IMG/VR virus record: IMGVR_UViG_3300047564_005910
Coordinates: 48,317 to 112,316 of that record
Strand: one strand, 5' to 3'
DNA length: 64,000 nucleotides
Source: a virus
Within the stretch, counting starts at the first letter, position 1; each line of letters starts with the position of its first letter. The position numbers were made by a program, and so were the translations under genes. Shown one piece after another: positions 34,296-60,504 of the stretch. The notes under the pieces are model-generated. The model was given only the letters and a program-made list of their open reading frames with translations, was not told the origin of the DNA and did not search any database.

Positions 34296-35243
34296 CTACT
34301 GACCCATAGCTTTTTTAGTGTAATATTTCGGGTTTACTAAAACAGGGGGTAGCATGTCAAAAGATGTAGCTCTACACGGATTAATGTCTAATGAACCACG
34401 ACGTGAGTATAGTAGAGTTACAGCACAAGAATCTACTTCAGGACATTTCATAATTTCTGTATAAAGCTTTTCAGCACAAAACTCGTGAAACTCGTTAACC
34501 TCTCTAAGAGAGACTACCTGTTTAAAAAGTGATTCAGGTTTAAGAACACAACCAAGGGTGTTAATTGAGATATAAGCGGCTCCTGTATCTTTTTGCTTTG
34601 TATGGCGGCAACGAGAGCGTAATGCATTAGTAAAGAATTTATTTGCATAAAGGGCTTTGTTTTCTTTTATACTATAACCAAAGCCCGAATAATTAACACT
34701 TTCAAATTCAAGATGATTTTTTTCTGCATTATAATCAGTAATTTCAATACTCTCAAGATCTTTATCTAAGAAAGATTGTAAATCAATATAACCTGTCATA
34801 GGGAAGATTTCATTAATCTCATCTCCTGACCTAAAAAACTTAACATCAACGGAAGTTTCTAAAGCTTTTTCGAGATCTGTCTTAACTTGTAATTCGTAAT
34901 TTTGAATAGCAGAATCAAGCGACTGGCCCATCTTACACATGTCAAAAGTATTAAGGTAAAGTTTAGCAGACTTCGATTCAACCATATACTTAGAATCGGA
35001 TGAATAGGTGTACTTTAAAGTACCAGCTATAGGTACACCGCTATTAAGAAGAAAAGTAGCTTCATGGCAGTGCCAAGTATCATACCCAACAAATTCATCC
35101 CCTTTAATACCCCATCCATCTCGAGCGAGTTTACGGGGCATCGGGTTAAGAAGAGAGGGATCAAAACGGTCAGTGTAAACAGCATAAGAGGCTGAAGACC
35201 CTAACGATTTTGAAGCGATATCGTTTAAGTTTGTTGTACTCAT
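34296..35243 (-). CDS. queF: NADPH-dependent 7-cyano-7-deazaguanine reductase (bimodular QueF)
   Basis: QueF motif VESKSAKLYLNTF, catalytic LRSRCRHTKQKD (cf. LKSNC..T.QPD), EFHEFC and YSRRGSLDINP.R. Confidence 0.9.
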   Translation of the reverse strand: MSTTNLNDIASKSLGSSASYAVYTDRFDPSLLNPMPRKLARDGWGIKGDEFVGYDTWHCHEATFLLNSGVPIAGTLKYTYSSDSKYMVESKSAKLYLNTFDMCKMGQSLDSAIQNYELQVKTDLEKALETSVDVKFFRSGDEINEIFPMTGYIDLQSFLDKDLESIEITDYNAEKNHLEFESVNYSGFGYSIKENKALYANKFFTNALRSRCRHTKQKDTGAAYISINTLGCVLKPESLFKQVVSLREVNEFHEFCAEKLYTEIMKCPEVDSCAVTLLYSRRGSLDINPCRATSFDMLPPVLVNPKYYTKKAMGQ

Positions 35244-35788
35244 TGTTTTAAATATTTTTCTATTGTTTTCATTCTTTGCTCAACAGAACCTTTAAGCCGA
35301 ATGACTTTTTCTTTATTCTTCGGAGAAATTTTATACGTAATTAAATCTTCGAACAGAACAATTATATCATCTCTAAATTTAAAATCCACAGAACGTTCTC
35401 CGTCATCGACTAATTTTACATCAGATGGATCTGTATAAAAAACGTAGTCTAACTTATCAAACAGTAAACTAAATACACTATTAAAAGCATGTAAAACATC
35501 TTCTTTTACCTTGCCTTGATTTACTTGATATTTTGTATAAACATAACCATCTAAAATACAACGATCAAGCATTAAATTTTCTTCCGGTTTAAGATGATTC
35601 TTAATATGTTCAGCTAAAATGTATAGTTGAGTTTCTGTACCGCCAATCTCATTAATCTTTACATCATACGTCCGGCGAACATACCTCGTAACCTCATCAA
35701 CAAACTTATAATCTTTATAAGTCTCTTTGCACTTATTTAGTAAGGTAGTTTTACCTGTACTCTGAGCACCTGTAAATGAAACTCTCAT
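35240..35788 (-). CDS. P-loop nucleotide kinase-like protein (AAA_28/NadR-type)
   Basis: SFTGAQSTGKTT, DEVTR, LDRCILDGYVY and DDGER. Confidence 0.8.
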   Translation of the reverse strand: MRVSFTGAQSTGKTTLLNKCKETYKDYKFVDEVTRYVRRTYDVKINEIGGTETQLYILAEHIKNHLKPEENLMLDRCILDGYVYTKYQVNQGKVKEDVLHAFNSVFSLLFDKLDYVFYTDPSDVKLVDDGERSVDFKFRDDIIVLFEDLITYKISPKNKEKVIRLKGSVEQRMKTIEKYLKQ

Positions 35789-35795
35789 ATCTTTA

Positions 35796-36332
35796 TTATA
35801 GTCTATATCTTAAAAAATCAACCCATAATTCAGAAGCAGCTTTATGAGTTTTAGTAAAAATTTCATCAAGAGTATTGTTTTTTATATCAACAATATTTTG
35901 TGCTAGTATTGGCCCAGCATCTAATTCAGCAATACATTTGTGTATAGTGTTACCTGAGTATTTCAATTTTTCTTCAAAAGTACGAACTTGCGGGTCTTTA
36001 CCCTTTAGGTGAGGGTACGTAACTAAAGGGGCTGGATGCAAATTATATATTTCGTACAAGTCACATATTTCAGGTGGTATGATACGTAACCAACCGTGTA
36101 GTGTTACAAGAGATCTACTAGGTATAACATTTTTATATTCTTCTACTGTTGGTTTTTTTGGTAGCCAAATAAACTTGTCATGAAATTCATCAAATAATTC
36201 GGGTTTAATTTCTAAAAATTTATCTTTAGTTTTATTTGTAATAATAAAATCAGGTACCCGGTTAAGAGTTTTTATTAAATTAAAGATTTCAGAACCTGTT
36301 TGACTAAACAGTGTTACCCAAGGTCTTTTCAT
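35796..36332 (-). CDS. Formyltransferase (PurN-like), candidate preQ1 formyltransferase (DpdN-like)
   Basis: FSQTGS, LHGWLRI, YNLHPA, G.TIH and ELDAGPI formyl-THF motifs; sits between the DpdA-like gene and queF. Confidence 0.85.
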   Translation of the reverse strand: MKRPWVTLFSQTGSEIFNLIKTLNRVPDFIITNKTKDKFLEIKPELFDEFHDKFIWLPKKPTVEEYKNVIPSRSLVTLHGWLRIIPPEICDLYEIYNLHPAPLVTYPHLKGKDPQVRTFEEKLKYSGNTIHKCIAELDAGPILAQNIVDIKNNTLDEIFTKTHKAASELWVDFLRYRL

Positions 36333-37159
36333 TTACAGAGATTTCTAAACTGCGTAATATTCCAAAAAGAGTCGTATACTTGCTGACTTGTTAGATTAGC
36401 ATCAATAAAATCAACAAGTTTTACTGACCATTTTTCTGAAAGACCGGGACCCGGTTCATATCTTTTACCAAGAATGCCCGCAACAATTGGATTTGAAGTA
36501 TCAATAGTTTCAATATACTCACTCAAGTAATTATCAGAATATAGAGAAAATTCCCAAGGCAAAGATGCTCCGAGTAGATGATGTGGTTTGTCAACATCTA
36601 AAACGTCATTATCGTAAAGATCGTCAAGAAGCTTTACCCGGCCAATAGCATATTTAAACCATTTATTATCTTCATGGGACTTGACAAATCCCGGTACATT
36701 AATTTGTGACCAGTCACAGTTATCTAGGTAATAAGAATAATCAAACGAAATAGCAATTTTATCAACCTTTGGTGCTACAAAACGATAACAGTCAACAATA
36801 TCCTGATAGGTCTTACCCTGTACAACACCAATTTTACGTCCAGGTAGATCAGAATACTTTGTTAGGAAGTTATCCATTGACATACAAGTACCGGCTGTAT
36901 CCTCTAAAACATCAGGGATAACATACTCGAAGGGTTTAAGTTCTTTGACCCAATACGCAAACTGATCCGGATCAAAAGAGGTTCCTAGCTCAAAAATAGA
37001 GTTATCTAATAGAACTCTGCGACCGTAATCTACGGATCTGAAATAAAATTCTTTGTACGCCTGATTCTCAGGCAATAAATGCACCAAGCAATAATCATAG
37101 TCATTATAACCCCAAGAGTATGGAAGCAACGATACGGGTGTTTCGTGTGAGATTTTCAT
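36329..37159 (-). CDS. dpdA: TGT-fold guanine transglycosylase (DpdA3-like)
   Basis: LLDNSIFE, IPDVLED, IGVVQG, HHLLG and IDTSNP, the TGT/DpdA barrel motifs; clustered with queF and the polymerase. Confidence 0.75.
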   Translation of the reverse strand: MKISHETPVSLLPYSWGYNDYDYCLVHLLPENQAYKEFYFRSVDYGRRVLLDNSIFELGTSFDPDQFAYWVKELKPFEYVIPDVLEDTAGTCMSMDNFLTKYSDLPGRKIGVVQGKTYQDIVDCYRFVAPKVDKIAISFDYSYYLDNCDWSQINVPGFVKSHEDNKWFKYAIGRVKLLDDLYDNDVLDVDKPHHLLGASLPWEFSLYSDNYLSEYIETIDTSNPIVAGILGKRYEPGPGLSEKWSVKLVDFIDANLTSQQVYDSFWNITQFRNLCK

Positions 37160-37174
37160 AGAAGAAATTATATA

Positions 37175-39724
37175 CTAATTACAAAGTAAATCAAATAAAT
37201 CTGTTTGTACTTCTTTACCAATAATAGGTAATCTCCAGCCAATAGCGTCATAAACTTGTTCAATAGGAGGAGCTACAATTTTATTAAACATTTTATCGTA
37301 ATCAATTTTAACATCTAAACTAAACTCTTTCGGGTATTGATTTACAAAACCAATAGCGTCAAGGCCGTATGGGTTTTTTGCGGCATAAAAGTATTTGATC
37401 TTTTGACCTGAATTGATACGTTCATACTTTGTTTCAAGGTTATATTTTTCTAATAAGAGGTTATATGCAATTGCTGCTTTAACATGGCATGGTGTTGCTA
37501 AATTGAATTTTGCTAAAGAGGCGCCACCAGACCATTTGTCGTATTCTTTAACAGCTTTTCGAAACGCTGCATCTTCTACTTTAAGTGTTTTAAACAGTTC
37601 ATAAGCTTCTCTGTATACCTCGTTTGTCTTCTTTACATCTTTAGTTAAGAACGCTGTATTAATAGTTTTTTTAATTAACTCTTTAACTTGTTTAGGTGTT
37701 GTTGAACGTGCTAACTCAACACCAACATATTTAAATTTACTCGTAGGTACACCTTCTTCGTCTAGAATGTGAAGTATGTATCGTTTCTTCTGTAAAAAAG
37801 AACCGACATCAGCTATGGCTTCTCGCTTAAATTCAAATCGCGGATCAGCAGAGTTTAACTCTTTACGAGCCCAAGAAAGAATTTCTGTATTTAAATGTCT
37901 GCCAAGAGCATCAACTATTTTATGAGACTCGGAAGTAATGGCGTCATCTTTTACAAGCGGTAGTTTAAGTTTATTAAGGATAGGTTGTATAGTTGTGTAT
38001 AGGGAGTCGGTGTCCCCAGATAAAATAAGAGATTCATCGACATTAAATTTTTCTTTAGCCCATGCGTCAATAATAGCCCCTCCTGCTTTAGCAACAGCTT
38101 GACCGGTTAACGTGATTGAAGACGCGTTATCAATATCCATAAACGCCGAATGTTTGTTTGCAAACGTTCCGTAAATAGAGTTAAGGAGAATCTTTAACGT
38201 GTACTGTAGAGTATCAAAGTATTGTATTTGGGAAATTGTTTTTGGATCTTTTTGTTTTGTTTTTTTAAGCTCGATCATTTTTTGACGAGCATAGACTCGC
38301 TCATCATAAATGCTATTAATCAGGTTAGGACAAACACCTTTGTATTTTTGAGAGTATAAAACACCTGCTTTAGACAAAGAGACATTTTCTTCGGTTAGAA
38401 ATTTTTTAAGTTTCTTGGTGTTTATTGTAAAAATATTACCATTAACAAGACGTATATCGAGATCTTCATCTCCGTCAACATTACCTGTAACTATTTTACC
38501 TAGTTTAGTTTCTGGTGAAATATTAAGAGTTATGATTGTGTTAGGGTACAGAGAGTTAACGTCAAAACTTACAATAGCTTCTTTAAGACCTCGTTCAGGC
38601 TCCCTTACATAACCACCTTCAAGAGACTCTCTAATAGTATCGTTTTTAAACGTTGGTATGACGTAGCCTTGTTTGTCAGCCTGTAAAGTCATAGCTCCAG
38701 TAACAATAGATACCTTACCGAGAGCTCTTTCGAAATTTGTACAACCTTTATAAGACAATAGACGAATAATTTTAAGGTAGTTAAGTTTTTCTTCTAATTT
38801 ACGAAGCAGATCAACGTCCTGGATGTTATAGTCAACAAAATTTTCCCAGTCAGTGTCAGCTAAAGAGGATAAGTTTGTAGCATTAATAGCAAGCTTACCT
38901 TCCCCTAATTCGTATTCAGCAATATAATTTAACGAAAATGATTCTCGGTCACCTTTTGAATAGGTTTTGTAAATCTCCATGTAGTCTAAACAACTAACAC
39001 CTGAAATATACCAACGACCTACATCTTTACCAAACTTAGCAAAATTTTCTCTATACTGCATTTCACCGATTGGTGATAATTGTTTTATAAAATCTTCTCC
39101 GAGCAGGTTTCTAGCACGGTTAATAATATAAGGAATATCGAACTGCTCAGTATTCCACCCTGTTAAAATATCTGGAGGATCTTTTTTCCAGAACTTAACA
39201 AAGTTATCAAAAAGTTCTTGTTCTGTTTTACATAATATGTATGTAACATTATCGAGTTTAGGTTTATAGTCGTGCTTTAACCCCCAGGTGGTTATCTGGT
39301 TTGTCAGGGTATCATATACCGTAATAAGTACTACAGGGTCCTTAGCTTTATGAGGTACAGGGAACTCATTAGGAGAGTACGTTTCAATATCGATAAAATA
39401 AACTTTTAGTGGAAACTTACTAAACTCTTCTTTATGAACGTCGTCTTTAAACGTTTCAACCAAGAATTGCTGATCGACAGGCAGATTGCCAAATAACCTT
39501 TTAGTACTTGTTTCGTTTACGTACTTGTTTCGTTCAAAACTATTTTTAAAAAAATGTCTTTTTAGTGGTGTTTTAAAGATCGAGACAGCGTCTTTTGATT
39601 TTTCACTCTCTGTATAAAGAAACGGTGTAAACGGAACCTCAGTATCAATTCTATCGCCGTCAGAAGTCCACGTTCTTAGATATACAGTTCCTTCTCGTGG
39701 CCTATAAGTTGCGTTCCTAAACAC
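37175..39724 (-). CDS. gp43: Family B DNA polymerase
   Basis: Exonuclease motifs DIETY, GWN..FDIPY, YNIQD; polymerase motifs SFDVNSLYP, KILLNSIYG, GDTDS, KKRY; GTG start. Confidence 0.97.
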   Translation of the reverse strand: MFRNATYRPREGTVYLRTWTSDGDRIDTEVPFTPFLYTESEKSKDAVSIFKTPLKRHFFKNSFERNKYVNETSTKRLFGNLPVDQQFLVETFKDDVHKEEFSKFPLKVYFIDIETYSPNEFPVPHKAKDPVVLITVYDTLTNQITTWGLKHDYKPKLDNVTYILCKTEQELFDNFVKFWKKDPPDILTGWNTEQFDIPYIINRARNLLGEDFIKQLSPIGEMQYRENFAKFGKDVGRWYISGVSCLDYMEIYKTYSKGDRESFSLNYIAEYELGEGKLAINATNLSSLADTDWENFVDYNIQDVDLLRKLEEKLNYLKIIRLLSYKGCTNFERALGKVSIVTGAMTLQADKQGYVIPTFKNDTIRESLEGGYVREPERGLKEAIVSFDVNSLYPNTIITLNISPETKLGKIVTGNVDGDEDLDIRLVNGNIFTINTKKLKKFLTEENVSLSKAGVLYSQKYKGVCPNLINSIYDERVYARQKMIELKKTKQKDPKTISQIQYFDTLQYTLKILLNSIYGTFANKHSAFMDIDNASSITLTGQAVAKAGGAIIDAWAKEKFNVDESLILSGDTDSLYTTIQPILNKLKLPLVKDDAITSESHKIVDALGRHLNTEILSWARKELNSADPRFEFKREAIADVGSFLQKKRYILHILDEEGVPTSKFKYVGVELARSTTPKQVKELIKKTINTAFLTKDVKKTNEVYREAYELFKTLKVEDAAFRKAVKEYDKWSGGASLAKFNLATPCHVKAAIAYNLLLEKYNLETKYERINSGQKIKYFYAAKNPYGLDAIGFVNQYPKEFSLDVKIDYDKMFNKIVAPPIEQVYDAIGWRLPIIGKEVQTDLFDLLCN

Positions 39725-39754: not shown

Positions 39755-40996
39755 TCAATTAACTTGTTTAATATATTTTCGTTCCGAAGAACCATAAGGC
39801 GTGAAATAAGCTTCATGGTGTTTCATAATGTTTTTTTCATCCTCTAGCCAGAAATCTTCTGCGTATTCTCGGGACCTCTTACAAAGGTCAGCATACGTAT
39901 GTTGATTTTTTGTTGCCGTCTTTATACAGTCAATAAATTCTGAACCGTTAGAGTATTTTAATATAGCGTCTTTATATGTGACCATATCGGGACATACACA
40001 CGGTATACCGAGAGCTGCAGCTTCAAGTAATTTAATATTACTCTTTGCTTTGTTGAAGTTATTATCTTGTAATGCTGCAAACGTCAATTGTGTTCCTGAT
40101 TCAGCCATAGCAAGAGGGTAATCCGGAAGTTCAACCCATGGATGGAATGTTATTTCACCTGAATCAATAAAAGGTTTAAGCGGTAACGGGTAGCAGCCAT
40201 AAAACTGCCACTTAAAATCTTTGCGTGCCTTTATTATGTGCTGTACTACTCCCGCAAAGTCATCGTTTTGATTAACTCTGTTTGTTACATCGACGTGAGT
40301 ACCGGACGCAAAAATTGTTACAACTGGTTTCTTTTTATTCTTTTCAAACTTTTTAACCAAGTCTCCTAGGTTGTAGTATCTGTCAAACCACCATTTTAAT
40401 AGATAGTTAGGTATGGTAGTAATATTTTTGTTACCGGTTTTTTCGATATAATAATCCCGCATGAAATCACAAGTTACTGTCATTTCATCCATCATGCTAA
40501 TAATCTCTAAAATACTATCTCTAATTTCGTTTTGTACGAAAGCATCTTTATTACGATTAAAATCAGGTATGTCTTCTCTAAAGACGATATCATCAACTTC
40601 ATAGATGAGTTTGAATTTCATTTCTTCAGATAATTTTTTAAGTTGCTTAACAAATTCTTTTTGCATCGGGGTAGCCTGACGCTGTATTTTAATAGCTTTT
40701 ACCCCCATATAAAAGCGAGGATCAAGAACCATGGTTGTTAATTCAGTTAAAACAGCCTTTTGGTACAGGTTTAACATTAAATTAGGGGACATACACCTGT
40801 ACCAGCTACAGCCTCCGTAATCAGCTAAATAATTTATAGCTCTAGGTAAATTCGCACCTGGTATCTCAGGTGGTGGCAAAGTAGGCATATTAGGTGGCTG
40901 TATTGCAAAATTCTGCGCCCCGGGTATACCTGGCGGTAAGCCAGCAGGAGCTCCGGGTATATTGTAAATGGCCGAATGGATTGGTGCAAAATTCAT
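39755..40996 (-). CDS. GT-B-like glycosyltransferase with Pro-rich N-terminus
   Basis: GCSWYR..P, YEVDD, VTCDFMRDYY, TIPNY and FNKAKSNIKLLEAAALGIP. Confidence 0.8.
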   Translation of the reverse strand: MNFAPIHSAIYNIPGAPAGLPPGIPGAQNFAIQPPNMPTLPPPEIPGANLPRAINYLADYGGCSWYRCMSPNLMLNLYQKAVLTELTTMVLDPRFYMGVKAIKIQRQATPMQKEFVKQLKKLSEEMKFKLIYEVDDIVFREDIPDFNRNKDAFVQNEIRDSILEIISMMDEMTVTCDFMRDYYIEKTGNKNITTIPNYLLKWWFDRYYNLGDLVKKFEKNKKKPVVTIFASGTHVDVTNRVNQNDDFAGVVQHIIKARKDFKWQFYGCYPLPLKPFIDSGEITFHPWVELPDYPLAMAESGTQLTFAALQDNNFNKAKSNIKLLEAAALGIPCVCPDMVTYKDAILKYSNGSEFIDCIKTATKNQHTYADLCKRSREYAEDFWLEDEKNIMKHHEAYFTPYGSSERKYIKQVN

Positions 40997-41034
40997 ACTT
41001 TTATTTTAATATATAAGTTATTTTTTTGATTATA

Positions 41035-42837
41035 TCAACCGTTGTTTTCTAAGAATGTGAATCCGTTTTTCTTTACAAGGAATAAGAAGTTATTAACTCT
41101 AGTTGTAATAGCAGAACCTCTATGTGTTATTATATAACAGTTTTCGTGATACTTATCAAAACGTTCCTGTAGTATTTCTAAAACTAACTCTACTCCCTTA
41201 TCATCTAAAGATGAATCTAATAGCTCGTCATAAAATACGGTATTAAAATGTATATCGCCTTGCATGCGGCGTATATCCAAAAATGCAAATAAACACGCCA
41301 AATCAATCCGTTTTCTTTCGCCTCCAGAAAAGTTAAAGTATGATTTTTCAGTATTATTTTCGTCAGTTATTTTTTCTTCAAAGTATTCATTAAATTGACA
41401 AATACAGTTTGTATGTAAAGCTTGCAAATAATGTACTAATCTCGCATTAAGAACCTTTAATACTTTTTTAACGATATACGATTTAACACCCTCTTCAGAT
41501 ACAACAAACTTTACACACTCTAAAACAGATATTTCTTTATTAAGACGGTTAACGGTGTCTTGTAAAACAGTTATTTCTTTTTCTTGATCTTGTACAATTT
41601 TTTCTAATGATGTATTCGTTTCTTTTTTAATTTTTTCTTGTTCATTTTTAAAATTAGTTATTTGTTCAGTAATATATTCTATTTTGGACGTGTATAGCTT
41701 ATTGCTATTTTTAATTTCTTGTACTTTTTCTTTTTTGGTTTTTATTTCGTTAAATTCGTCTTTTGTTTTAGTTTGTTGTTCTTTTATATTGTTGATATCG
41801 TTTTGAAGGTTGTTTTCTTTATCTGTTAAATCGGTAAACTTTGCTGTTAGTTCATTCCGTCTATCTTCTTTGTGTTTTTTATGGTCAGTAGTGTACTCTC
41901 TTTGACACGTCGGGCACGCAGAACCTTGCTTTTCAAGTTCTTCAATTTGCTGTAGACAGATTTTTTTCTCGGTACGTATCCCGCTAATTTTTTCTAAGTG
42001 GTTATTATAAATTTCTTGTACATTGTGAATACTATTTTCAATCTTTTTAATTTTTTCTTGTATTAGAGTTTCTAAATCTTGAGGTATAATTTGTATTTGT
42101 TTTTTAAAAGTATCAATGTTGTTTGTATGTTCGACTATTTTATCTTGTATGTCGATAACTCGTTTGTTTTTATTTTCTTCAAAAAGGTCTAACTGCTCTT
42201 TGTTCTGTTTATAACTCTTTTCAACGCTTTCCTTTTTTGTATATGTGACCTCGTAATCTTTTTTAAGATCGTTTAGCTCGTCTCGAGCTCTTAATAACAT
42301 ATCCGAAAAAACCTCTAGATTTAAAACACTTTCAATAAATTTTCTTTTATCAACTTTACTTTGCGCCATGAAGGGCACAGTGTTATTGATTGTCATTACA
42401 ACTGAGTTTTGAAAAACTTTTGGTGTTGATCGAATTATCTTTTGTATAAATTCGTTCGTTTTAGGAAGGGTAGATCTAGTTACATCAATATCGTCCTTAA
42501 AGATAGTGCATTTTGTAGGTTGTAAAGATCTTGTTATATAGTATTTTGTCTTTGTATTACTATTTTGTATAAAAAACTCTAAAGTAACTACACAGTTCTT
42601 TTGATTAACAGAGTTAATAATTTGATCTTTTGTAAGCTCTCTTATTGTAGATCCGAAGAAGGCAAAATGTAATGCGTCGACTACTGTAGATTTACCAACC
42701 CCGTTTTTAGAGTCTTCTTTATCGTAGTTAATGCCTGTAATGCCATTTATACCAGCATTAAAAGTAATGGTTAATGGTGTTTCCCCAACTGATAAAAAGT
42801 TTTGTACAGTAAGTTTGTTTAATACAATTAATTGCAC
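41035..42837 (-). CDS. gp46: Recombination nuclease ATPase subunit (gp46/SbcC/Rad50)
   Basis: NGVGKST, CPTC zinc hook, FSGGE, YDELLD and ITH. Confidence 0.95.
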   Translation of the reverse strand: MQLIVLNKLTVQNFLSVGETPLTITFNAGINGITGINYDKEDSKNGVGKSTVVDALHFAFFGSTIRELTKDQIINSVNQKNCVVTLEFFIQNSNTKTKYYITRSLQPTKCTIFKDDIDVTRSTLPKTNEFIQKIIRSTPKVFQNSVVMTINNTVPFMAQSKVDKRKFIESVLNLEVFSDMLLRARDELNDLKKDYEVTYTKKESVEKSYKQNKEQLDLFEENKNKRVIDIQDKIVEHTNNIDTFKKQIQIIPQDLETLIQEKIKKIENSIHNVQEIYNNHLEKISGIRTEKKICLQQIEELEKQGSACPTCQREYTTDHKKHKEDRRNELTAKFTDLTDKENNLQNDINNIKEQQTKTKDEFNEIKTKKEKVQEIKNSNKLYTSKIEYITEQITNFKNEQEKIKKETNTSLEKIVQDQEKEITVLQDTVNRLNKEISVLECVKFVVSEEGVKSYIVKKVLKVLNARLVHYLQALHTNCICQFNEYFEEKITDENNTEKSYFNFSGGERKRIDLACLFAFLDIRRMQGDIHFNTVFYDELLDSSLDDKGVELVLEILQERFDKYHENCYIITHRGSAITTRVNNFLFLVKKNGFTFLENNG

Positions 42838-42878
42838 AGACTTATTTTAAAATAAAAAACAAAATTATCAAGAAAGTT

Positions 42879-43910
42879 TTAATTAAAGAGCTTTTTTGTC
42901 CAAGTTTTTGGAGTGTTCTCTGTTTGTATTTCTATTGGAAGATGATAGTTAAAGCAACGTACTGGTTGGGTTTTTATCCATTCTACTGTTTCTTTAATAG
43001 TATCATCGCAGCTGTAAAGTGTTTTGTAATTTAGGATCCCGCTCGCTTTCTGAGTGTCAACCCATGCGTATTTTACTTCTCTCGGTCTATCAGGCATGTG
43101 TTGTATTTTTGGCTCCATATTACAAGCAGCACCTACTTTATGAGCGAGGTCTAAAATAGTAATTTCAGTGCCATCGCTAGGGCCGATATTAAAAACTTCT
43201 TTGCTATTAATAGTATCACGTTTTTCGTATAGAGATACGAACGCGTCAATGCAGTCACTTACGTGAGAAAAACTTCTCTTTTGTAAGCCGTCCCCATAAA
43301 CATAAACAGTTTTATTATTTAAAATAAGGTTAGTAAATATGCTCATAACATTTCTAAAAGGATCCGAATAGCATTGATTCGGGCCAGCGACGTTATGAGG
43401 AACCATATGATATACCTTTATTCCATAAATATCGCTCATTAAGTTTAGGTGTTGTTCAGCATGAAGTTTTGCTAGACCGTACGGGTCAATAGGCTGTGGT
43501 GTTGAATCTTCTACGAATGGTGTAGGTAGATTACCGTATCTAGCCATACTGCTTGTATTTATAAACATTGGTGCACCGCTTGCTATAGCAGCACTACATA
43601 TGTTAACTGTGCCTGCGTAAATATTTTCACATATTGTTTTAGGGCTAAAAACACTTAACCCTTCATGAGCAAGTGCAGCACAATGTATAACTAGATCAGC
43701 TTTTATTTCTTTAAAATGTTCAGCTATCGCTTGAGTATTTAAAATATCGGCCTGTATAAAAGTAAAATTAGTTACGTTAGGTAAATTCGAATAATAACCA
43801 CCTATTAAATTGTCAATCCCGTAAACTTTCCAACCTAAAGATAAAAATTTATATGCCAAATGACTACCTATAAGACCGGCTACTCCTGTTATTATTACTT
43901 TCTTTTGCAT
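42879..43910 (-). CDS. NAD-dependent nucleotide-sugar epimerase/dehydratase
   Basis: ITGVAGLIG, HCAA, TSS, YGLAK, YGDGLQKRSF and FNIG. Confidence 0.92.
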   Translation of the reverse strand: MQKKVIITGVAGLIGSHLAYKFLSLGWKVYGIDNLIGGYYSNLPNVTNFTFIQADILNTQAIAEHFKEIKADLVIHCAALAHEGLSVFSPKTICENIYAGTVNICSAAIASGAPMFINTSSMARYGNLPTPFVEDSTPQPIDPYGLAKLHAEQHLNLMSDIYGIKVYHMVPHNVAGPNQCYSDPFRNVMSIFTNLILNNKTVYVYGDGLQKRSFSHVSDCIDAFVSLYEKRDTINSKEVFNIGPSDGTEITILDLAHKVGAACNMEPKIQHMPDRPREVKYAWVDTQKASGILNYKTLYSCDDTIKETVEWIKTQPVRCFNYHLPIEIQTENTPKTWTKKLFN

Positions 43911-43916
43911 TTTTTT

Positions 43917-44651
43917 TTATTTATACCCTTTAATAATAGTTCTACCGTGTAAGAGACTTGAACTTGCTTCCCCGCAATTAGGCTTACCTGCTGCTACATT
44001 TAAAATAGAATTGTCCCACTTTTTCCACGATTCTTTAATCTCGGGCTTATCCCCCCAAATAAAAAGGTCCCAGTGAGGATAACTCTCTTCAGGTATATTG
44101 CGGATTACCCATTTCGGGTGATGTCCGTCCCATTTTTTAAGCCAATGTGGCGTTGAAAGTATAGCACCAGGTTTATTAAGAGGTGATTTCCAGTCTTGAT
44201 CGTAATCTGCTTCGTGACTTTCGTATATAGCCAAGTCAGCCTCTCTTAAGCGCCACACCCACTCTCTATCTTCCCAACCACCATGTACGTATCTTTCATC
44301 CCACCAACCAATATTACGAATTAGTTCTTTAGAAAAAGCAGAAAAACCAATGCCGTACAAACACGTCCAAGCAAAGCCAGACTCTAAATGTTTTATCATT
44401 TTTTTAATCTCATTGGGTTTAGGGTGAGCACGATCATTAATAAAAAAGATCCATTCTGTCGGGGATGTTGCTACAGAGTGATTTAACATTAACGAATATG
44501 ACTCATACATAAACGGATACCGGTCGATACGGTTATTCCAATGTACTTTATATTCTTGTTCTAGTGGTTTAAGCGCTTCAATTTGTTTATTAACAACGTC
44601 CCTGCTACAGCCACAGTGTAGACAAATTGTAAATTCTGTTATTTTAAACAT
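43917..44651 (-). CDS. GT-A (GT2-like) glycosyltransferase
   Basis: WIFFIND and IGWWDERYVHGGWEDRE. Confidence 0.75.
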   Translation of the reverse strand: MFKITEFTICLHCGCSRDVVNKQIEALKPLEQEYKVHWNNRIDRYPFMYESYSLMLNHSVATSPTEWIFFINDRAHPKPNEIKKMIKHLESGFAWTCLYGIGFSAFSKELIRNIGWWDERYVHGGWEDREWVWRLREADLAIYESHEADYDQDWKSPLNKPGAILSTPHWLKKWDGHHPKWVIRNIPEESYPHWDLFIWGDKPEIKESWKKWDNSILNVAAGKPNCGEASSSLLHGRTIIKGYK

Positions 44652-44652
44652 A

Positions 44653-45465
44653 TTAAATCGCTGGGTAACGTTTTGTATATTCGTCGACTAACCACGGCTG
44701 ACCACCAGCGAAGTGTCTATATATTACATTATCAGGATTTGCACGCGAAATGTCGTATAGTGCTGGCTTACCAGTTGTCTTATCCCCGGTTTCTTCGTAA
44801 AGATGTGTAACGTTCCATTCCGTAGGAAGTACCTCAACATGTTCAAGTAGTTCATCTAAAGAAAAGATAGTGTGTTCTGTTACTTGAGAATGTAACCCGT
44901 TGTTTGGCAGTTCATAAAATGATTGCCAACTATGTGGTTTAATACCGGCGTTAATATAATAAGCTTGTTGATCTCCGTGGTAAAATGTACATTCTTGATT
45001 ATAATGTTCGTTCCAGAGTTTAAAATCTTTACATTTGTAAAATCTTTCTTTTGAGATTAAGAGATCAACAAGGTTACGAGACCATTCATCAATTTTAAGA
45101 ATAAAAAAGCCAAAGCAGTGGGTATTACCTGAATCAATTGCGTAAGTAAAGCTTTTTGTCGGTGTGTGAATTTTATCCATTTGACAAATAAACGTGTCAG
45201 CGTCAAACTGATAAACCATATCCCCGTCTTGAAGTTTACCTGATGTAAGTAATTTTTTAAAGATATGCCATCTGTTAAAATGAAAATTGTCACCAGGCCC
45301 TAATTCCGGAAAATAAATTTGAGGAGTAAAATCATTCTTAGTAATTTCGACATATTTTAGCCCGTGAATTTCGCAATATCTCTTATTACGTGGGGAAATA
45401 TATTGTTGGAACAATTTTTCTTTCTCGCCGCTATATATAGCTAATGTAACAAAATACTTTTTCAT
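44653..45465 (-). CDS. GT-A glycosyltransferase (GT34/GT8-like)
   Basis: YCEIHGL.Y, FDAD (DxD), DQQA, LPTEWNVT and HFAG. Confidence 0.7.
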   Translation of the reverse strand: MKKYFVTLAIYSGEKEKLFQQYISPRNKRYCEIHGLKYVEITKNDFTPQIYFPELGPGDNFHFNRWHIFKKLLTSGKLQDGDMVYQFDADTFICQMDKIHTPTKSFTYAIDSGNTHCFGFFILKIDEWSRNLVDLLISKERFYKCKDFKLWNEHYNQECTFYHGDQQAYYINAGIKPHSWQSFYELPNNGLHSQVTEHTIFSLDELLEHVEVLPTEWNVTHLYEETGDKTTGKPALYDISRANPDNVIYRHFAGGQPWLVDEYTKRYPAI

Positions 45466-45483
45466 TAAGATAGTTTATTGTGT

Positions 45484-49582: not shown

Positions 49583-50363
49583 ATTGTTTTTTAATTTGTT
49601 TCATTAATGTTATAGTTTCTTCTTTAGAAGCTGTTTTTTCATAAGGGTTTCTAACATCGAAACCGTGCTTATCTACAAAATAATTACACGCCTTATGAAA
49701 ATTTTCTAGCCATTTTTCATCACGGCGAATTTCTGAACCAGTATGACCTCTGTCTATTTCTTCAATATATGCATTACTATTAGTAATATCGGCAAACCAT
49801 CGAAACGGTGGGTGCATTTTTTTATTAATAATACTTTGAGTGTGATCGACATGCTCCATAGCGTTGTAAAAAAATTCGTCCATATTACCAACGGCTTCTA
49901 AACATTTTTTTGTATACATAGAAAAAGCACCGTATAAATTTGGGTACAAACAAACAGAAACTTCAGGGGAGTAGTCAACTTTTAATCTCACGGCAGGGGA
50001 TCCGTCCGGTTTATAGTTGTCCAGACCATGGAACGCAAAATTAAAATGTTGTATACCAGATTTGTTCGAAGCTTCAATATATTTTTCGAAAACTGTTAAG
50101 TCTTTAATGACTATATCATCTTCTATTAAAAAAATATACTCACACTCTTTAAGTTGATTTAGTGCCCGGTTCTTTGCCTTGCCGACTCCTTGTTTAGGAG
50201 GAACGTTGTTGTAAACTGTTAACTTATTACCACCATCAATTTGTTTTAAGCCGTCATTAATAATAACTAACTTAGCACCTTTTAAATCTTTTAAAGAATT
50301 AATTAATTTCTTTAAGTAGTCCGGTCTGTCGCAAGTTATAATACCTATACCTATTTTATTCAT
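49569..50363 (-). CDS. GT2-like glycosyltransferase
   Basis: IGIITCDRPDYL, IINDG, GVGKAKN, FLIEDD, VGNMDE and EHVD. Confidence 0.85.
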   Translation of the reverse strand: MNKIGIGIITCDRPDYLKKLINSLKDLKGAKLVIINDGLKQIDGGNKLTVYNNVPPKQGVGKAKNRALNQLKECEYIFLIEDDIVIKDLTVFEKYIEASNKSGIQHFNFAFHGLDNYKPDGSPAVRLKVDYSPEVSVCLYPNLYGAFSMYTKKCLEAVGNMDEFFYNAMEHVDHTQSIINKKMHPPFRWFADITNSNAYIEEIDRGHTGSEIRRDEKWLENFHKACNYFVDKHGFDVRNPYEKTASKEETITLMKQIKKQYEQK

Positions 50364-54349: not shown

Positions 54350-54766
54350 ATGCTTGAAACCGGTCATTGGCTTTTAAAAGAGGGGGTCGTCTTGCAACCG
54401 GAAACTTTTGGGTTTATATATCTAATTACAAATCTTGTAAACAACAAAAAATATATTGGAAAAAAGCAGTGTTTTATGAAGATAACGCGAAACCCTTTAA
54501 AGGGGTTTAAGCGTAAACGTATCAGTAGAGCTGAATCGGGCTGGAAAGATTATACTAGTTCATCGAATGAACTGAACGAAGATATTGAAAAGTATGGTAA
54601 AGATAATTTCAAATTTGAAATTTTAAAAACATGCGGCTCAAAATGGGAGCTAGCATATGAAGAAATTAAAGAGCAAATCAAACAAGAGGTACTGCTTCGG
54701 TCTGATTATTATAACGGCATAATCAATGTACGTATTGGCAGACCTCCTAAAAGTTTAAATAAGTAA
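54350..54766 (+). CDS. Short GIY-YIG endonuclease (T4 EndoII/denA-like)
   Basis: FGFIYLITN...KKYIGKK, WKDYTSSS, F.FEIL and YYN; no homing-type DNA-binding extension. Confidence 0.85.
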   Translation: MLETGHWLLKEGVVLQPETFGFIYLITNLVNNKKYIGKKQCFMKITRNPLKGFKRKRISRAESGWKDYTSSSNELNEDIEKYGKDNFKFEILKTCGSKWELAYEEIKEQIKQEVLLRSDYYNGIINVRIGRPPKSLNK

Positions 54767-55401: not shown

Positions 55402-55403
55402 GC

Positions 55404-56211: not shown

Positions 56212-56237
56212 TTTTTAGTATACATAAATATAAATGT

Positions 56238-57488
56238 ATGCTACTCGAGAAAGCGTTTAATTCTTTCTATAAAGAAAATGTTAACACCTACCTGCTTGAA
56301 AAAGCCGGGATTGTTAAACATTTAACACATCTGGAAGAATTAATACTTACCCAACGAGCAATGGGGGTTGAAGTAGCTGTCAACTTTATAAAGGTTTTAC
56401 TCGATACACTTGAAGGTGGTACTGATCAAAGAGTAATTACCACTATTAAGTACGACGGTGCACCAGCAATAATTGCTGGTATTAATCCAGATAATAATCG
56501 CTTTTTTGTATCTACAAAAAGTATTGCCAATGTAAAGCCAAAAATAAACTATACTGCCCAAGATATTGTTAACAATCACGGAAACGCACCTGGGTTAGCA
56601 GAGAAACTTAAAATGGCCTTACAGTATCTCCCTGAAGTTATAAAACAAGGCATCTACCAATGTGATTTTATGTTTGACCCGGGAACACTTTATACTGTCG
56701 AACATGAAGGTGAGAAACTTTTAGCATTTAAACCGAACACAATTGTTTATACCTTTCCGTATGATAGTGAAGCGGCTCAAGAGATACTCAAAGCAAAAAT
56801 AGGGGTTATTTTTCATACAAAGTATGAAGGTGCACCAAGTCAAGGTCTTACATCAGGTGGTGTTGTTAATGTTAATGAATTTAATAAATCTTCAAACGTT
56901 TGGTTTGACGATGCTCAATTTAAAAACGTCTCCGGTGCTGTTACACTTACAAAAAAAGAAAAGACCGGTATTAATGAAACTCTTAAAAATATAATTTCAA
57001 TTAGCCGCACTGTAAATTGGGATAAGTTACCACCGGATTTTTATAGTAACGCAAATACTTTTATTAATACCCTTATAAGACAAGGTAAGTTTGTTGATGA
57101 CCCGGTGGAAGGGTATGACAGTATTGTTAAATGGATTGGTGAGAGGTATGATAAAGATACGTCAGTACTTAAAACCGACAAGGGCCGGGAACGTAAATTA
57201 CAGCAAAAAGAAGAAGAAATGAAAACCCTTAAGGTACATAAAAAAGATATTTTAAGTATTTTTAGTATAACAAAAAAATTAGCTGAAATAAAAATTCTCT
57301 TTATTCAAAAATATAACGCAGCCATACATACAAGACATTTTATAGCGGAACCTAATGGTGATCTAAAGGTTACCGCTCCGGAGGGCTATGTTGCAATTGA
57401 CCAAGAGGGGAACATGATTAAACTTGTTGACAGGTTAGAATTTTCCCGTGCTAATTTTGCTGTAACAAAAGGAGAAAAGTTTAAGTGA
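56238..57488 (+). CDS. Ligase-like nucleotidyltransferase of unknown function (T4-like phage family, DUF6267-like)
   Basis: HLTHLEE, TIKYDGAPA (KxDG), EGYV and IKLVDRLEFSRANF; TAAATA at 56225-56230. Confidence 0.65.
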   Translation: MLLEKAFNSFYKENVNTYLLEKAGIVKHLTHLEELILTQRAMGVEVAVNFIKVLLDTLEGGTDQRVITTIKYDGAPAIIAGINPDNNRFFVSTKSIANVKPKINYTAQDIVNNHGNAPGLAEKLKMALQYLPEVIKQGIYQCDFMFDPGTLYTVEHEGEKLLAFKPNTIVYTFPYDSEAAQEILKAKIGVIFHTKYEGAPSQGLTSGGVVNVNEFNKSSNVWFDDAQFKNVSGAVTLTKKEKTGINETLKNIISISRTVNWDKLPPDFYSNANTFINTLIRQGKFVDDPVEGYDSIVKWIGERYDKDTSVLKTDKGRERKLQQKEEEMKTLKVHKKDILSIFSITKKLAEIKILFIQKYNAAIHTRHFIAEPNGDLKVTAPEGYVAIDQEGNMIKLVDRLEFSRANFAVTKGEKFK

Positions 57489-58111
57489 AATCCTTTTATT
57501 CTTTCTTTTTTGAAAACGAACAAACTGGTAAAACAATAGTTATTTTTCCAGGCGGTTTTCATCCTTTTCATAAAGGGCATAAGAGTATATACGACAATAT
57601 TGTAAAAACATTTCCAAATGCGGACAAGTATATTGCTATTGCTGATTTTACAAAAGATCGTCCATTTACCGCGGACGAAAAAAAGCTTATAATATCTTCA
57701 ACGGGTATTGATCCTAACGCAGTACGAGTTGTAAAAAGCCCGTTTAAAGCAGAAGAAATTTTATCTCGATATAACCCTGAGAAGGATACAGCAATATTTG
57801 CTATGAGCGAAAAAGAAAAGCAAGACCCTAAAAAAGCTTCTTTCTTTAACCCGTTTAAGAAAGACGGATCACCTGCTTATTTTCAGCAGTATCAAACAAG
57901 TACACCATTACAGCCATTCGGTAAGCATGGTTATATATATGTATTCCCAACAATTGATTTTAAGCTTCTCGGTAAATCGTTTCGTAGTGCTAGTGAATTA
58001 AGGCAGTATTATCAAAGCCTTAATGACGAACAAAAAATGTCTCTACTAAAAGACATGTATATAAGCAATCAAGAACAAATTAAGAAAATATTTGACGAAA
58101 GATTGATATAA
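57485..58111 (+). CDS. HxGH cytidylyltransferase-like nucleotidyltransferase
   Basis: IFPGGFHPFHKGH, PF...EK and SASELR; GTG start overlapping the upstream stop. Confidence 0.8.
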   Translation: MKSFYSFFFENEQTGKTIVIFPGGFHPFHKGHKSIYDNIVKTFPNADKYIAIADFTKDRPFTADEKKLIISSTGIDPNAVRVVKSPFKAEEILSRYNPEKDTAIFAMSEKEKQDPKKASFFNPFKKDGSPAYFQQYQTSTPLQPFGKHGYIYVFPTIDFKLLGKSFRSASELRQYYQSLNDEQKMSLLKDMYISNQEQIKKIFDERLI

Positions 58112-58115
58112 TAGT

Positions 58116-58143
58116 TGAAATTAGGTATTCCGGAATATATCAT
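58116..58143 (+). promoter_or_regulatory. Sigma70-like promoter for the queD/queE operon
   Basis: TTGAAA-N17-TATCAT upstream of the ATG at 58154 (coordinates approximate to 1 nt). Confidence 0.5.
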
Positions 58144-58153
58144 ATTGGTATAT

Positions 58154-58471
58154 ATGAGTACAACCATTTTATATCCGGCTGACGAAAGTAGTACCAGTCA
58201 GCATTCAATCCCGTTTTCAAAAGATGAAATTAACTTAATTATTGAGTGTTTATTATTTTCATCATCAGTAAACATCGGGGCAGATTGGCAAGAAGATGAT
58301 TTTTTAAAAATGTTAACGCTTGCTAAAAAAATTAAAAAGATTATTAGCAAAATTGATCTTAAAAACCTTATGCTCTATAAAGAAGAAAATTACGAAGATA
58401 ATTGGACTGAAGAGCTATGTAAAGAATTTGGTAAAGATATTCAACAGGAAGTAGAGCTAAATAAAGCCTAA
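58154..58471 (+). CDS. Hypothetical protein
   Basis: Likely start MSTTILY at 58154; its stop overlaps the queD start. Confidence 0.6.
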   Translation: MSTTILYPADESSTSQHSIPFSKDEINLIIECLLFSSSVNIGADWQEDDFLKMLTLAKKIKKIISKIDLKNLMLYKEENYEDNWTEELCKEFGKDIQQEVELNKA

Positions 58472-58917
58472 TGATAACATTCGAATCAACAAAAATAATT
58501 GAGCTAGGCTCATGTGCATTTCGTCAATGGCGAGCAGAAGGTACTCACTGCAAGTATGTACATGGTTATCAATTAAAAGCTAAATTCTGGTTCGGGTGCA
58601 CCGGTTTAGATGATAAAAACTGGGTCATTAATTTTGGTGGCTTAAAAGAAGTTAAAAGGTTATTACAAGATCAGTTTGATCATACGCTCTGTATAGCGGC
58701 AGATGACCCTCTACTTAATATCTTTAAAGATCTTTACGAAAGAGGTGGGTGCCAGCTTCGTATCATGGATGGTGTCGGTATTGAGAAAACTGCTGAGTGG
58801 TGCTATAAAAACGTTGACCCCATGATAAGGTCAATGTCAGTAGGACGTTGCTGGGTTAATAAAGTTGAAGTTTGGGAACACGATTTAAATAGTGCAATTT
58901 ATGAAAGATCAGCTTGA
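58471..58917 (+). CDS. queD: 6-carboxytetrahydropterin synthase (QueD/PTPS family)
   Basis: SCAFRQW..HCKYVHGY, WVINFGGLK, FDHT, GIEKTAE and VEVWEH; near queE. Confidence 0.85.
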   Translation: MITFESTKIIELGSCAFRQWRAEGTHCKYVHGYQLKAKFWFGCTGLDDKNWVINFGGLKEVKRLLQDQFDHTLCIAADDPLLNIFKDLYERGGCQLRIMDGVGIEKTAEWCYKNVDPMIRSMSVGRCWVNKVEVWEHDLNSAIYERSA

Positions 58918-59110
58918 AATTATTAATGCCAAATTTGAAAAGGTGATGCCTAAAAATGATAAGGGCGGATTTTGGGGCGGCTTATGGCAGTTTTTATCTC
59001 TTGTATCTATACTTATCTTTTGCGCTTTTTACGTTCTTTTTTTAAACCCACTTGGATGGCTGAGCATTGTAATAATGTCATTAGTCTATAAATTTATTAT
59101 CGGGAGTTAA
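58901..59110 (+). CDS. Small membrane protein (two hydrophobic segments)
   Basis: GLWQFLSLVSILIFCAFYVLFL and LGWLSIVIMSLVYKFII. Confidence 0.6.
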   Translation: MKDQLEIINAKFEKVMPKNDKGGFWGGLWQFLSLVSILIFCAFYVLFLNPLGWLSIVIMSLVYKFIIGS

Positions 59111-59113
59111 TTT

Positions 59114-59872
59114 ATGATAGATAACAATAAAGAAACATTGTTCCTTTCTGACGATTTAGTATTTTATACTATTGAAGGTGAAGGAGAGTTCATTGGGCAG
59201 CCGTCGGTGTTTATGCGATTAGCTATGTGTAATTTGACATGTATTGGTTTTGCGTCGCCTGATTCACCTAACGGTTGTGATTCATTTGTGTCGTGGTCTG
59301 TAAAAAATAAAAAGACATTTACTGAGATCTTTCAAATGATGGAAAATAACAATTACGTAGAACACCTTCGTAATAGAGCAATATTAAAATTAACCGGTGG
59401 GGAGCCCCTTATTCAAGAAAAGCAGCTTCTTAAATTTATTGAAGCCTTTATTGAGAGATATAATTTTACCCCTCGTATTGATTTTGAAACTAACGCAACA
59501 CTGATACCTTCTGAACGGTGGCGCTCAATTTTTAATGCAACGTTTACTACATCCCCTAAGCTGTCCACTAACGGGGACCCAGAAGAGAAGTCTTATAAAC
59601 CGGAAGTACTCCGCTGGCATGTCGAGCATGGTTCGGGGTTTAAGTTTGTTATTACTTCTGATAGAGATATAGAGGAGATTTGGAAAAAGTACGTTGATGA
59701 CGACCAAGGTATAAATGTGCCGTTATTTCGTATATGGTTTATGCCATGTTGCGGCTCACGTAAAGAGCATATTGAAAATGCAGCAGCTGTTGCTGAATAT
59801 GCTAAGTCAATGCACGTGAATTTTTCTCCAAGATTACAGCTAGTAATTTGGGATAAAGCGCTTAAAGTATAA
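59114..59872 (+). CDS. queE: 7-carboxy-7-deazaguanine synthase (radical SAM)
   Basis: FYTIEGEG..G.P.VF.RL, CNLTC-X11-CD, LTGGEP, ETN, SPK and PRLQ. Confidence 0.92.
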   Translation: MIDNNKETLFLSDDLVFYTIEGEGEFIGQPSVFMRLAMCNLTCIGFASPDSPNGCDSFVSWSVKNKKTFTEIFQMMENNNYVEHLRNRAILKLTGGEPLIQEKQLLKFIEAFIERYNFTPRIDFETNATLIPSERWRSIFNATFTTSPKLSTNGDPEEKSYKPEVLRWHVEHGSGFKFVITSDRDIEEIWKKYVDDDQGINVPLFRIWFMPCCGSRKEHIENAAAVAEYAKSMHVNFSPRLQLVIWDKALKV

Positions 59873-59874
59873 TA

Positions 59875-60504
59875 ATGAAAATTGCTTTTATTGGTACACA
59901 TTGTAACGGAAAAACTTCTCTTATAGAAGAATTTTTGCAAAAATGGCCTATGTACAAGCGGCCTGAAAAAACATATAGAGAACTTCTTAAAGAGAAAAAA
60001 GTAACAAATAATAAAGAAGGAACTGAAGAAAGTCAAAAAGCTATTTTAAACGCTCTCATCGATGAAATACAAGAAGCTGTTGCGACCGGGGATAAAGACA
60101 TTGTTTTCGATCGCTGTGTAATCGATAATATCGTTTACTCTCTTTGGTTAAACGAAAATAATAAAGTTAGTGATCAATTTATAATGGATTCAAAATTCTT
60201 AGCATTGCAAAGTTTAAAAATGTTAGATATTATATTTTATTTGCCGTTAAGAGAAGAAATTAAAATTACTGAAAAAGAAACTAGAGAAACTGATCCATCT
60301 TATCGAAAAGAGATTGATAATATTTTTAATGCTTTAGTACAGACATATGAAAAAAATACCGGTGCTTTCTTCCCTCTAGAAGATTGTCCTGCAGTCATAA
60401 GACTTGAAGGTCCTCCTGATTTAAGATGTCAACAAATACAGCTTTATCTAAAAGAAACAGGTCAAGTATATAGCGAAACCGACGGATCCTTACTTTATGT
60501 ATAA
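59875..60504 (+). CDS. Second P-loop nucleotide kinase-like protein (AAA_28-type)
   Basis: IAFIGTHCNGKTS and FDRCVIDNIVY; similar architecture to 35240-35788. Confidence 0.75.
   Translation: MKIAFIGTHCNGKTSLIEEFLQKWPMYKRPEKTYRELLKEKKVTNNKEGTEESQKAILNALIDEIQEAVATGDKDIVFDRCVIDNIVYSLWLNENNKVSDQFIMDSKFLALQSLKMLDIIFYLPLREEIKITEKETRETDPSYRKEIDNIFNALVQTYEKNTGAFFPLEDCPAVIRLEGPPDLRCQQIQLYLKETGQVYSETDGSLLYV

Follow-up and report, generated by a model that had tools for sequence, protein, structure and literature searches.

Three phage groups have been reported to replace every G of their DNA by a 7-deazaguanine, and all three use the transglycosylase DpdA3; in one of the phages described, the Flavobacterium phage immuto_2-6A, deoxyguanosine (dG) is fully replaced by formyl-preQ1 (fdPreQ1; PMC10516641). 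Here we focus on K1, a gene for a P-loop kinase-like protein which adjoins DpdA3 in a module of this type, and on K2, a second kinase gene. Both are located in the last 64 kb (the window, to which coordinates refer unless prefixed) of the IMG/VR record IMGVR_UViG_3300047564_005910, a 112,316-bp sequence of an uncultured virus with an estimated completeness of 53%. In its overall make-up, the module is a further member of the known DpdA3 / formyl-preQ1 kind, and the kinase is the part which is absent from the searched literature: the main paper on these systems never mentions a kinase (PMC10516641), and no paper in the searched literature links one to them.

An original prediction had singled out two related P-loop kinases, each attached to one half of the deazaguanine pathway. 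The pair itself was borne out, as K1 (35240-35788, minus strand, 182 aa) and K2 (59875-60504, plus strand, 209 aa) correspond to exact open reading frames (ORFs), both belong to the AAA_28 family, and their alignment spans the full length at 27% identity (E 5e-16). Judged from this alignment, the two proteins are paralogs. Their reported positions, K1 between the genes for a formyltransferase and QueF and K2 beginning 2 nt past the end of QueE, were likewise confirmed.

A kinase gene that accompanies DpdA3

The K1 operon is compact. On the minus strand, the gene order is PolB-DpdA3-DpdN-K1-QueF, with 15 nt between the polymerase gene and DpdA3, a 4-nt overlap of DpdA3 and DpdN, 7 nt between DpdN and K1, and a further 4-nt overlap of the K1 stop with the QueF start. 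The first gene encodes a family B DNA polymerase (gp43-like; 37175-39724; Pfam DNA_pol_B and an exonuclease domain). The TGT-like transglycosylase encoded next (36329-37159, 276 aa) is 45% identical to immuto_2-6A DpdA (E 2e-71) and 41% identical to gp056 of Campylobacter phage CP220 (E 2e-56), matches phrog_19058 (E 1e-48), and belongs to the DpdA3 subfamily by which a DpdA3-type system is recognized (PMC10516641). It is followed by a DpdN-like formyltransferase (35796-36332, 178 aa; Formyl_trans_N E 4e-13; NCBIfam PurN-like), by K1 with its motifs GAQSTGKTT and DRCILD (Pfam PF13521 E 8e-15), and by a bimodular QueF, the preQ0 reductase (34296-35243, 315 aa; Pfam QueF_N and QueF; NCBIfam TIGR03138 E 9e-48). 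The first step of the pathway is represented by the GTP cyclohydrolase I FolE (28189-28842, minus strand; 55% identity to immuto FolE by tblastn; NCBIfam FolE E 1e-47). Together with QueD and QueE, which are described below, FolE and QueF make up the deazaguanine synthesis genes of the record; searches of the 112 kb of this partial record gave no QueC, MazG or phosphoribosyltransferase.

The immuto_2-6A locus shares the order DpdA3-formyltransferase-AAA_28 kinase-QueF with a polymerase gene close by, and its products are 45% (DpdA3), 46% (DpdN), 37% (QueF) and 32% (kinase) identical to those of the window. It differs in that the polymerase is PolA there, whereas the window encodes a T4-like replication set with a family B enzyme, and in that QueD and QueE lie 22 kb off in the window, beside K2. 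The immuto_2-6A kinase is annotated as a 'thymidylate kinase' in its record and is not named as part of the system (PMC10516641).

Searches in both directions define how closely the kinase follows DpdA3. An alignment search of IMG/VR with DpdA3 gave at least 572 loci, of which the best 80 were analysed. A K1-type kinase is present in 73 of them, and the contigs of the other seven end within ~650 bp of DpdA3; the kinase gene is located on the same strand 0-1.5 kb downstream of DpdA3 in 70 loci, ~7 kb downstream in two and upstream in one. The reciprocal search, selected on K1, returned 561 relatives. Among 76 new loci analysed, 69 have DpdA3 no more than 2.3 kb upstream, and the other seven have less than 1.3 kb of upstream DNA. 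Since 73/80 and 69/76 loci keep the arrangement and all exceptions are truncated contigs, the placement of K1 is far beyond chance. The pair is kept in three architectures (DpdA3-DpdN-K-QueF, DpdA3-K-QueF and DpdA3-K) and is found beside PolB, PolA or neither of them, PolB preceding DpdA3 in 34 related loci.

Among cultured phages, DpdA3 is confined to the immuto phages, Firehammervirus and the phiST group, and the first two of these have K1 homologs. In CP220, DpdA3 (gp056) is directly followed by a K1-like gene (gp057). In Cellulophaga phage phiST, a P-loop kinase-like gene (gp041, AAA_18) ends one base before the DpdA3 start; it is not orthologous to K1 and looks like a non-orthologous replacement in the same role. 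One sub-lineage (genomes G002, G007, G028 and G031) has the K1-like gene and DpdA3 40-72 kb apart, yet keeps both. In G031, which is 99% complete, DpdA3 is directly followed by ThyX, a thymidylate synthase (L172:8217-9709), and not by the kinase gene; 72 kb separate it from the K1-like gene, which has a dUTPase and a clamp-loader gene in its vicinity. The complete, terminally repeated genome G021 (202,880 bp) has no DpdA3, QueD, FolE or K1-type gene. K1 is a fixed functional partner of DpdA3.

Gene fusions add a second line of evidence. A profile search of 1.84 billion representative sequences gave 559 clusters at E 1e-30 or better, among which K1-type kinases are fused to a DpdN-type formyltransferase (P0231, 44% identical to the DpdN of the window, and P0263), to QueF (P0224), to FolE2 (P0275, 17 member sequences), to dUTPase (P0146, and P0274 with six members) and, in metagenome representatives, to a GNAT acetyltransferase (P0142, P0169 and P0177). 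Wherever the chemistry of a fusion partner is known, its substrates are small molecules or nucleotides. The same searches, which are weak for long proteins, showed no K1-type kinase fused to DpdA3. The association with dUTPase recurs in CP220 (gp006-gp007), near the K1-like gene of G031 and in the fusion proteins.

Two observations stand beside these results. The GNAT domain of P0142, P0169 and P0177 takes the position which the DpdN formyltransferase occupies in other fused relatives, and hints at an undescribed modification of the acetyl-preQ1 type. Immediately upstream of the DpdA3-kinase pair of CP220, gp055 (L002:6050-7081) combines an HD phosphohydrolase domain with an AAA_33 kinase domain in a single protein, which may have nucleotides as substrates or take part in RNA repair.

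Fold and family of the two kinases

K1 and K2 score well above the gathering cut-off of PF13521 (55.9 and 52.2 bits; cut-off 27), carry the Walker A pattern GxxxxGK[TS] and the lid arginine of AAA_28 proteins, and both match PHROG 2107. The label 'thymidylate kinase', which is attached to this PHROG and to GenBank records, is unsupported as a statement of membership, because both proteins fall below the curated cut-offs of the thymidylate-kinase models (K1 14.7 bits on PF02223, cut-off 27; K2 20.4 bits on TIGR00041, cut-off 83). Neither protein matches the Pfam deoxynucleoside kinase (dNK) family PF01712, for which some relatives give sub-threshold matches. In the K1 family, G7, G12, K13, T15, Gln54, D129 and R132 are invariant, as is the DR motif, G130 and S133 are nearly so, and Glu31 is the majority residue only. 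K2 (motifs GTHCNGKTS and DRCVID; Pfam PF13521 E 1e-13) retains the P-loop, the DR motif, R137 and R144, and the DDG motif is not kept.

The AlphaFold2 models reached a mean predicted local distance difference test (pLDDT) score of 90.9 for K1, built with 31 sequences, and of 88.9 for K2. Deoxycytidine and deoxynucleoside kinases, thymidylate kinase and NadR occupy the top Foldseek ranks for the K1 model. In an exhaustive structural search, its best match is the ribosylnicotinamide-kinase (RNK) domain of NadR (Z 18.3, root-mean-square deviation 2.4, 167 residues aligned; a second NadR entry at Z 17.9), ahead of human deoxyguanosine kinase (dGK; Z 17.1), Drosophila dNK (Z 16.1), Mycoplasma deoxyadenosine kinase (dAK; Z 15.8) and thymidylate kinases (TMPK; Z 15.2); nucleoside kinases outscore nucleoside monophosphate (NMP) kinases by 2-3 Z units. 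Among sequences of the Protein Data Bank (PDB), the K1 profile matches a deoxynucleoside kinase most strongly (4e-6), followed by NadR (2e-5) and TMPK (1.6e-4). K2 has the same fold, for which NadR (Z 15.7), dGK, dAK and TMPK are tied at Z ~15, and its profile finds a Mycoplasma deoxyguanosine kinase (2e-4) but no NadR. By their predicted fold, K1 and K2 are small-molecule nucleoside or nucleotide kinases.

NadR, the characterized AAA_28 member (RNK domain; PDB 8X7F, 6GYE, 1LW7), shares with K1 the Pfam family and the VDDGxRS lid, which the profile match spans and in which K1 aligns to the VDDGLRS of NadR. Both phage proteins differ from it in standing alone, with no fused NMN adenylyltransferase (NMNAT) or helix-turn-helix domain, in being only ~15% identical, and in having DpdA3 and Que enzymes as genomic partners instead of NAD genes. 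The deoxynucleoside kinases (human dGK 2OCP, Drosophila dNK 1OT3, Mycoplasma dAK/dGK 2JAQ/2JAS and Giardia dAK 8PUU) share the fold (Z 15-17), and the profile matches to them span the P-loop, a conserved Gln and the DR motif; the identity to K1 and K2 is nevertheless only 14-19%.

A more specific step, the conversion of a modified deoxynucleoside monophosphate (dNMP) to the diphosphate in the manner of T4 gp1, had been part of the original prediction. In T4, the dNMP kinase gp1 and the dCMP hydroxymethylase gp42 provide a pre-replicative route to hydroxymethylcytosine (hmC). As a working analogy, gp1 is a phage kinase that takes a modified nucleotide towards the deoxynucleoside triphosphate (dNTP), and K1 would resemble it in lying near polymerase and uvsX genes. 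The step is not established. No link to gp1 emerged in sequence or structure; gp1 is absent from the top 50 structural matches of K1 and K2, and no direct sequence comparison was made. The nearest relatives of K1 are nucleoside kinases, not NMP kinases. Because these nearest structures rank ahead of thymidylate kinases, the acceptor of K1 may be a nucleoside instead of a dNMP.

Pool-level or DNA-level modification

The established cases of complete base replacement in phage DNA, hmC, hydroxymethyluracil and 2-aminoadenine among them, arise at the level of the nucleotide. In the mechanism which we favour for DpdA3 phages, the deazaguanine base would be made by FolE, QueD, QueE, possibly QueC, and QueF, and DpdA3 would join it to the deoxyribose of a free nucleoside or nucleotide by base exchange. 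DpdN may tailor the product, K1 would phosphorylate it towards the dNTP, and the phage polymerase would use the modified dNTP, so that G would be replaced before replication. We consider it somewhat more probable than the contrary that K1 acts on such a pre-replicative route, as the kinase for what DpdA3 would make by exchanging the base of a free deoxynucleoside or nucleotide; the substrates, the order of the steps and the action of DpdA3 on the pool instead of on DNA are what we infer. The most far-reaching version is offered tentatively, at a little less than an even chance: DpdA3 would not be a DNA transglycosylase and would instead exchange the base of free deoxyguanosine or of dGMP/dGTP, K1 would be a dedicated kinase returning the product to the dNTP pool, and the complete replacement of G in CP220-, phiST- and immuto-type phages would be pre-replicative.

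A role for K1 at the level of the pool is favoured because of its kinase fold, its two-way linkage to DpdA3, the fusions of its relatives to small-molecule enzymes and the recurrent association with dUTPase. A modified dGTP was proposed earlier for Campylobacter phages (PMC6884629), and the ADG nucleoside has been observed in CP220-infected cells (cited in PMC10516641). That DpdA3 acts after replication has been deduced solely from the occurrence of a DpdA homolog (PMC10516641).

Several points weigh against a pool-level route. TGT-family enzymes are known to act on polynucleotides and not on free nucleotides. Homology alone cannot separate a nucleoside from an NMP acceptor. No dGTP-removing enzyme is common to DpdA3 phages: immuto and phiST have a MazG-like gene and CP220 has the HD domain fused to an AAA_33 kinase, and both MazG (PF03819) and HD (PF01966) are absent from the 112-kb record and from near-complete DpdA3 phages, G031 among them. 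Some of the apparent fusions could be assembly or frameshift artefacts, and the lone K-QueF fusion in particular could be an assembly error, since K and QueF overlap in related loci. The DpdA3 homologs are acidic (median isoelectric point 5.1, n=78) and lack a CxCxxC zinc site, which was considered as a sign that they do not bind DNA and was rejected, because DpdA1 of phage 9g, a validated DNA enzyme, has an isoelectric point of 5.6 and is likewise without the zinc motif. Finally, all DpdA-encoding viruses are held to modify their DNA after replication (PMC10516641).

A phosphoribosyltransferase was also considered as a universal entry step and rejected, as it is found in several DpdA3 genomes and is absent from CP220. 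As an observation in its own right, the gene (PF00156) lies beside a QueD copy in G031 (G031:C1:132831-133803), occurs in G028, G002 and L001 (L001:5357-5752), and is absent from G021 as well; it might serve to recover the guanine that is released or to form a deazaguanine ribonucleotide.

The strongest alternative, which we regard as unlikely, would make K1 an ATPase that assists DpdA3 on DNA, in functional analogy to the bacterial DpdB; ATP hydrolysis by K1 would allow DpdA3 to reach and exchange every G after replication. It agrees with the published post-replicative model and with the tight adjacency of the two genes, which would fit a two-component enzyme. Bacterial DpdA requires the ATPase DpdB for the insertion of preQ0 into DNA (PMC10164549), DpdB thus being an NTP-using protein needed together with a DpdA-family transglycosylase, and a missing partner would explain why DpdA3 alone could not be validated in E. 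coli (PMC10516641). The resemblance does not extend to the proteins themselves, however, as DpdB has a ParB-like fold acting with DNA, whereas K1 and K2 are not ParB-like and have the P-loop fold of kinases, the nearest relatives of K1 all phosphorylating small molecules. K1-type proteins are fused to QueF, FolE2, dUTPase, DpdN and GNAT and, in the searches made, never to DpdA3, and G031 and its relatives have the K1-like gene 40-72 kb from DpdA3, beside dUTPase and clamp-loader genes. The validated phage enzyme DpdA1 also lacks such an adjoining partner: in the phage 9g cluster, which brings about partial replacement, no P-loop kinase adjoins DpdA, although gp10, 'similar to ATPases' and unexamined, lies ~5 kb off.

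Still more doubtful is the view that both kinases are general salvage enzymes, which re-phosphorylate canonical (deoxy)nucleosides or dNMPs released by the breakdown of host DNA and lie near que and dpd genes only through the clustering of nucleotide genes in T4-like genomes. It draws on AAA_28 relatives in phages without deazaguanine genes, among them Streptomyces phage Samisti12, E. coli phage JS09 (RB69ORF045c), which has no QueD and whose distant copy is located immediately upstream of uvsX, and the complete G021, and on the loss of the K2-QueE adjacency in more distant relatives. These arguments suit K2 and not K1, which follows DpdA3 in both directions across PolB-, PolA- and Campylobacter-type phages, is absent from the DpdA3-less G021 and is found fused to pathway-specific enzymes. 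The idea of dedicated deazaguanine kinases survives for K1, on the strength of the co-occurrence, the kinase fold and the fusions, and not for K2, whose clade extends to G021 and has its sister in Samisti12. Equally, the occurrence of homologs in phages lacking que and dpd genes, named beforehand as the outcome that would count against a dedicated role, applies to K2 and the wider family and not to the K1 type.

K2, neighbouring genes and implications

On the plus strand, K2 closes a series of genes in the order DUF6267, HxGH protein, u118, QueD, a 72-aa ORF, QueE and K2. QueD (58471-58917) matches Pfam PTPS (E 2e-15) and NCBIfam QueD; the radical SAM enzyme QueE (59114-59872) matches Pfam Fer4_12 and, with scores short of the curated cut-offs throughout, the NCBIfam QueE models (E 2e-12 to 3e-7). 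The small protein u118 (58115-58471) has no family match.

Hundreds of close K2 homologs exist; a single-protein scan of IMG/VR gave nothing, and an alignment-based search gave 80 K2 loci, in 59 of which u118 precedes K2. The order u118-QueD-QueE-K2 is present in 49 of 49 loci with a K2 of at least 55% identity, whereas among the 31 loci with a K2 at 42-52% identity none has queD or queE within 10 kb, 17 have u118 directly before K2, and DpdA3 occurs in only five of the records. Co-occurrence with DpdA3, which was to be measured for both kinase clades, is thus seen in both directions for the K1 type and not for K2, and the argument that the same family at both loci is unlikely to be chance holds for K1 and, for K2 and QueE, among close relatives only. 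To assign one kinase to each half of the pathway is to read too much into a gene order that is specific to the lineage.

G021 keeps u118-K2 in a genome without DpdA3, QueD or FolE, and in G031 the que genes adjoin PolB-DpdA3 and K2 remains with u118 elsewhere. As the pair is present in phages without deazaguanine genes, u118-K2 looks like an ancestral unit between whose members queD and queE were inserted here. In a quick LG+G4 tree, rooted on a very distant outgroup and trusted for the K2 clade only, this clade is monophyletic (SH-aLRT, an approximate likelihood-ratio test, 97), and its sister is the Samisti12 'thymidylate kinase', whose gene belongs to a replication module and whose genome has no QueD. 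The second kinase of CP220, gp006, was considered as a K2 ortholog and rejected, as it forms a long branch outside the clade. K2 is a paralog carried throughout the lineage, with or without deazaguanine genes. Most likely it is a housekeeping kinase for general (deoxy)nucleoside or nucleotide phosphorylation; in the source phage, it may also take the modified nucleotide one step further.

The least probable reading, under which K2 would be a ribosylnicotinamide kinase forming a split NadR-like NAD+ salvage pair with the HxGH protein three genes upstream, unrelated to DNA modification, can appeal to the AAA_28 family of the NadR RNK domain, to NadR among the top structural matches of K2, and to the GGFHPFHKGH motif and weak NMN-adenylyltransferase matches of the upstream protein (57485-58111, 208 aa), and is set aside because these matches are far below the curated cut-offs, dGK, dAK and TMPK tie with NadR in structure, the K2 profile finds a deoxyguanosine kinase and not NadR, and co-occurrence gives no support, the HxGH protein being present in only 20 of 80 K2 loci and without a match in the K2-keeping G021 and G031 (a search without positive control).

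Other genes flank the K2 cluster. A DUF6267 protein (416 aa) and the HxGH protein overlap by 4 nt (56238-58111, plus strand), and in some relatives a u208-like region lies within an ORF over twice as long (~515 aa). Directly after K2, a 477-aa protein (60525-61958, plus strand) has no Pfam, PHROGs or NCBIfam match and keeps this position in 10 or more related loci. At the switch from the minus-strand to the plus-strand gene block lies a gene for a SegE-like GIY-YIG homing endonuclease (54350-54766, plus strand).

Past QueF, u128 (33871-34257, minus strand; no family match) is conserved between the K1/QueF genes and UvsX and is present in 23 DpdA3 loci, including loci without DpdN and QueF. Between u128 and UvsX, just past the deazaguanine module, lies an FkbM-family methyltransferase (33282-33884, minus strand). 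All 80 related DpdA3 loci lack a homolog of it, so that it looks like an insertion restricted to the source phage, and it could provide an additional modification. Glycosyltransferase-like genes and an NAD-dependent sugar epimerase/dehydratase form an island (39755-50363, minus strand) which separates the gp46-like from the gp47-like genes and may provide a second layer of DNA or surface glycosylation.

The window (~33% G+C) encodes gp32, a gp41-like helicase, UvsX and the family B polymerase, and further T4-like replication proteins (gp46/47-like, a UvsW-like helicase, UvsY and a primase). The source is an uncultured T4-like phage, and near-identity DNA searches with the K1 and K2 loci gave no match among cultured phages.

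Hundreds of viral contigs pair DpdA3 with a nucleoside/nucleotide-kinase-fold gene, which may come before or after it and is in some cases fused to another enzyme of the pathway. For annotation, this means that the thymidylate-kinase labels in databases are to be corrected for both kinases, and that K2-type genes are not to be read as markers of deazaguanine DNA. DpdA3 has never been made active in a test system; for its reconstitution, K1 is a concrete component to add, and it offers a direct way to decide between pre- and post-replicative modification. If the modification is pre-replicative, these phages would provide enzymes for making 7-deazaguanine dNTPs, and the prediction of such phages from sequence would change. 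If DpdA3 does exchange bases on free nucleotides, these phages would make nucleotides in a new way, with a TGT-fold enzyme at its base, and the post-replicative model would be overturned for the DpdA3 subfamily.

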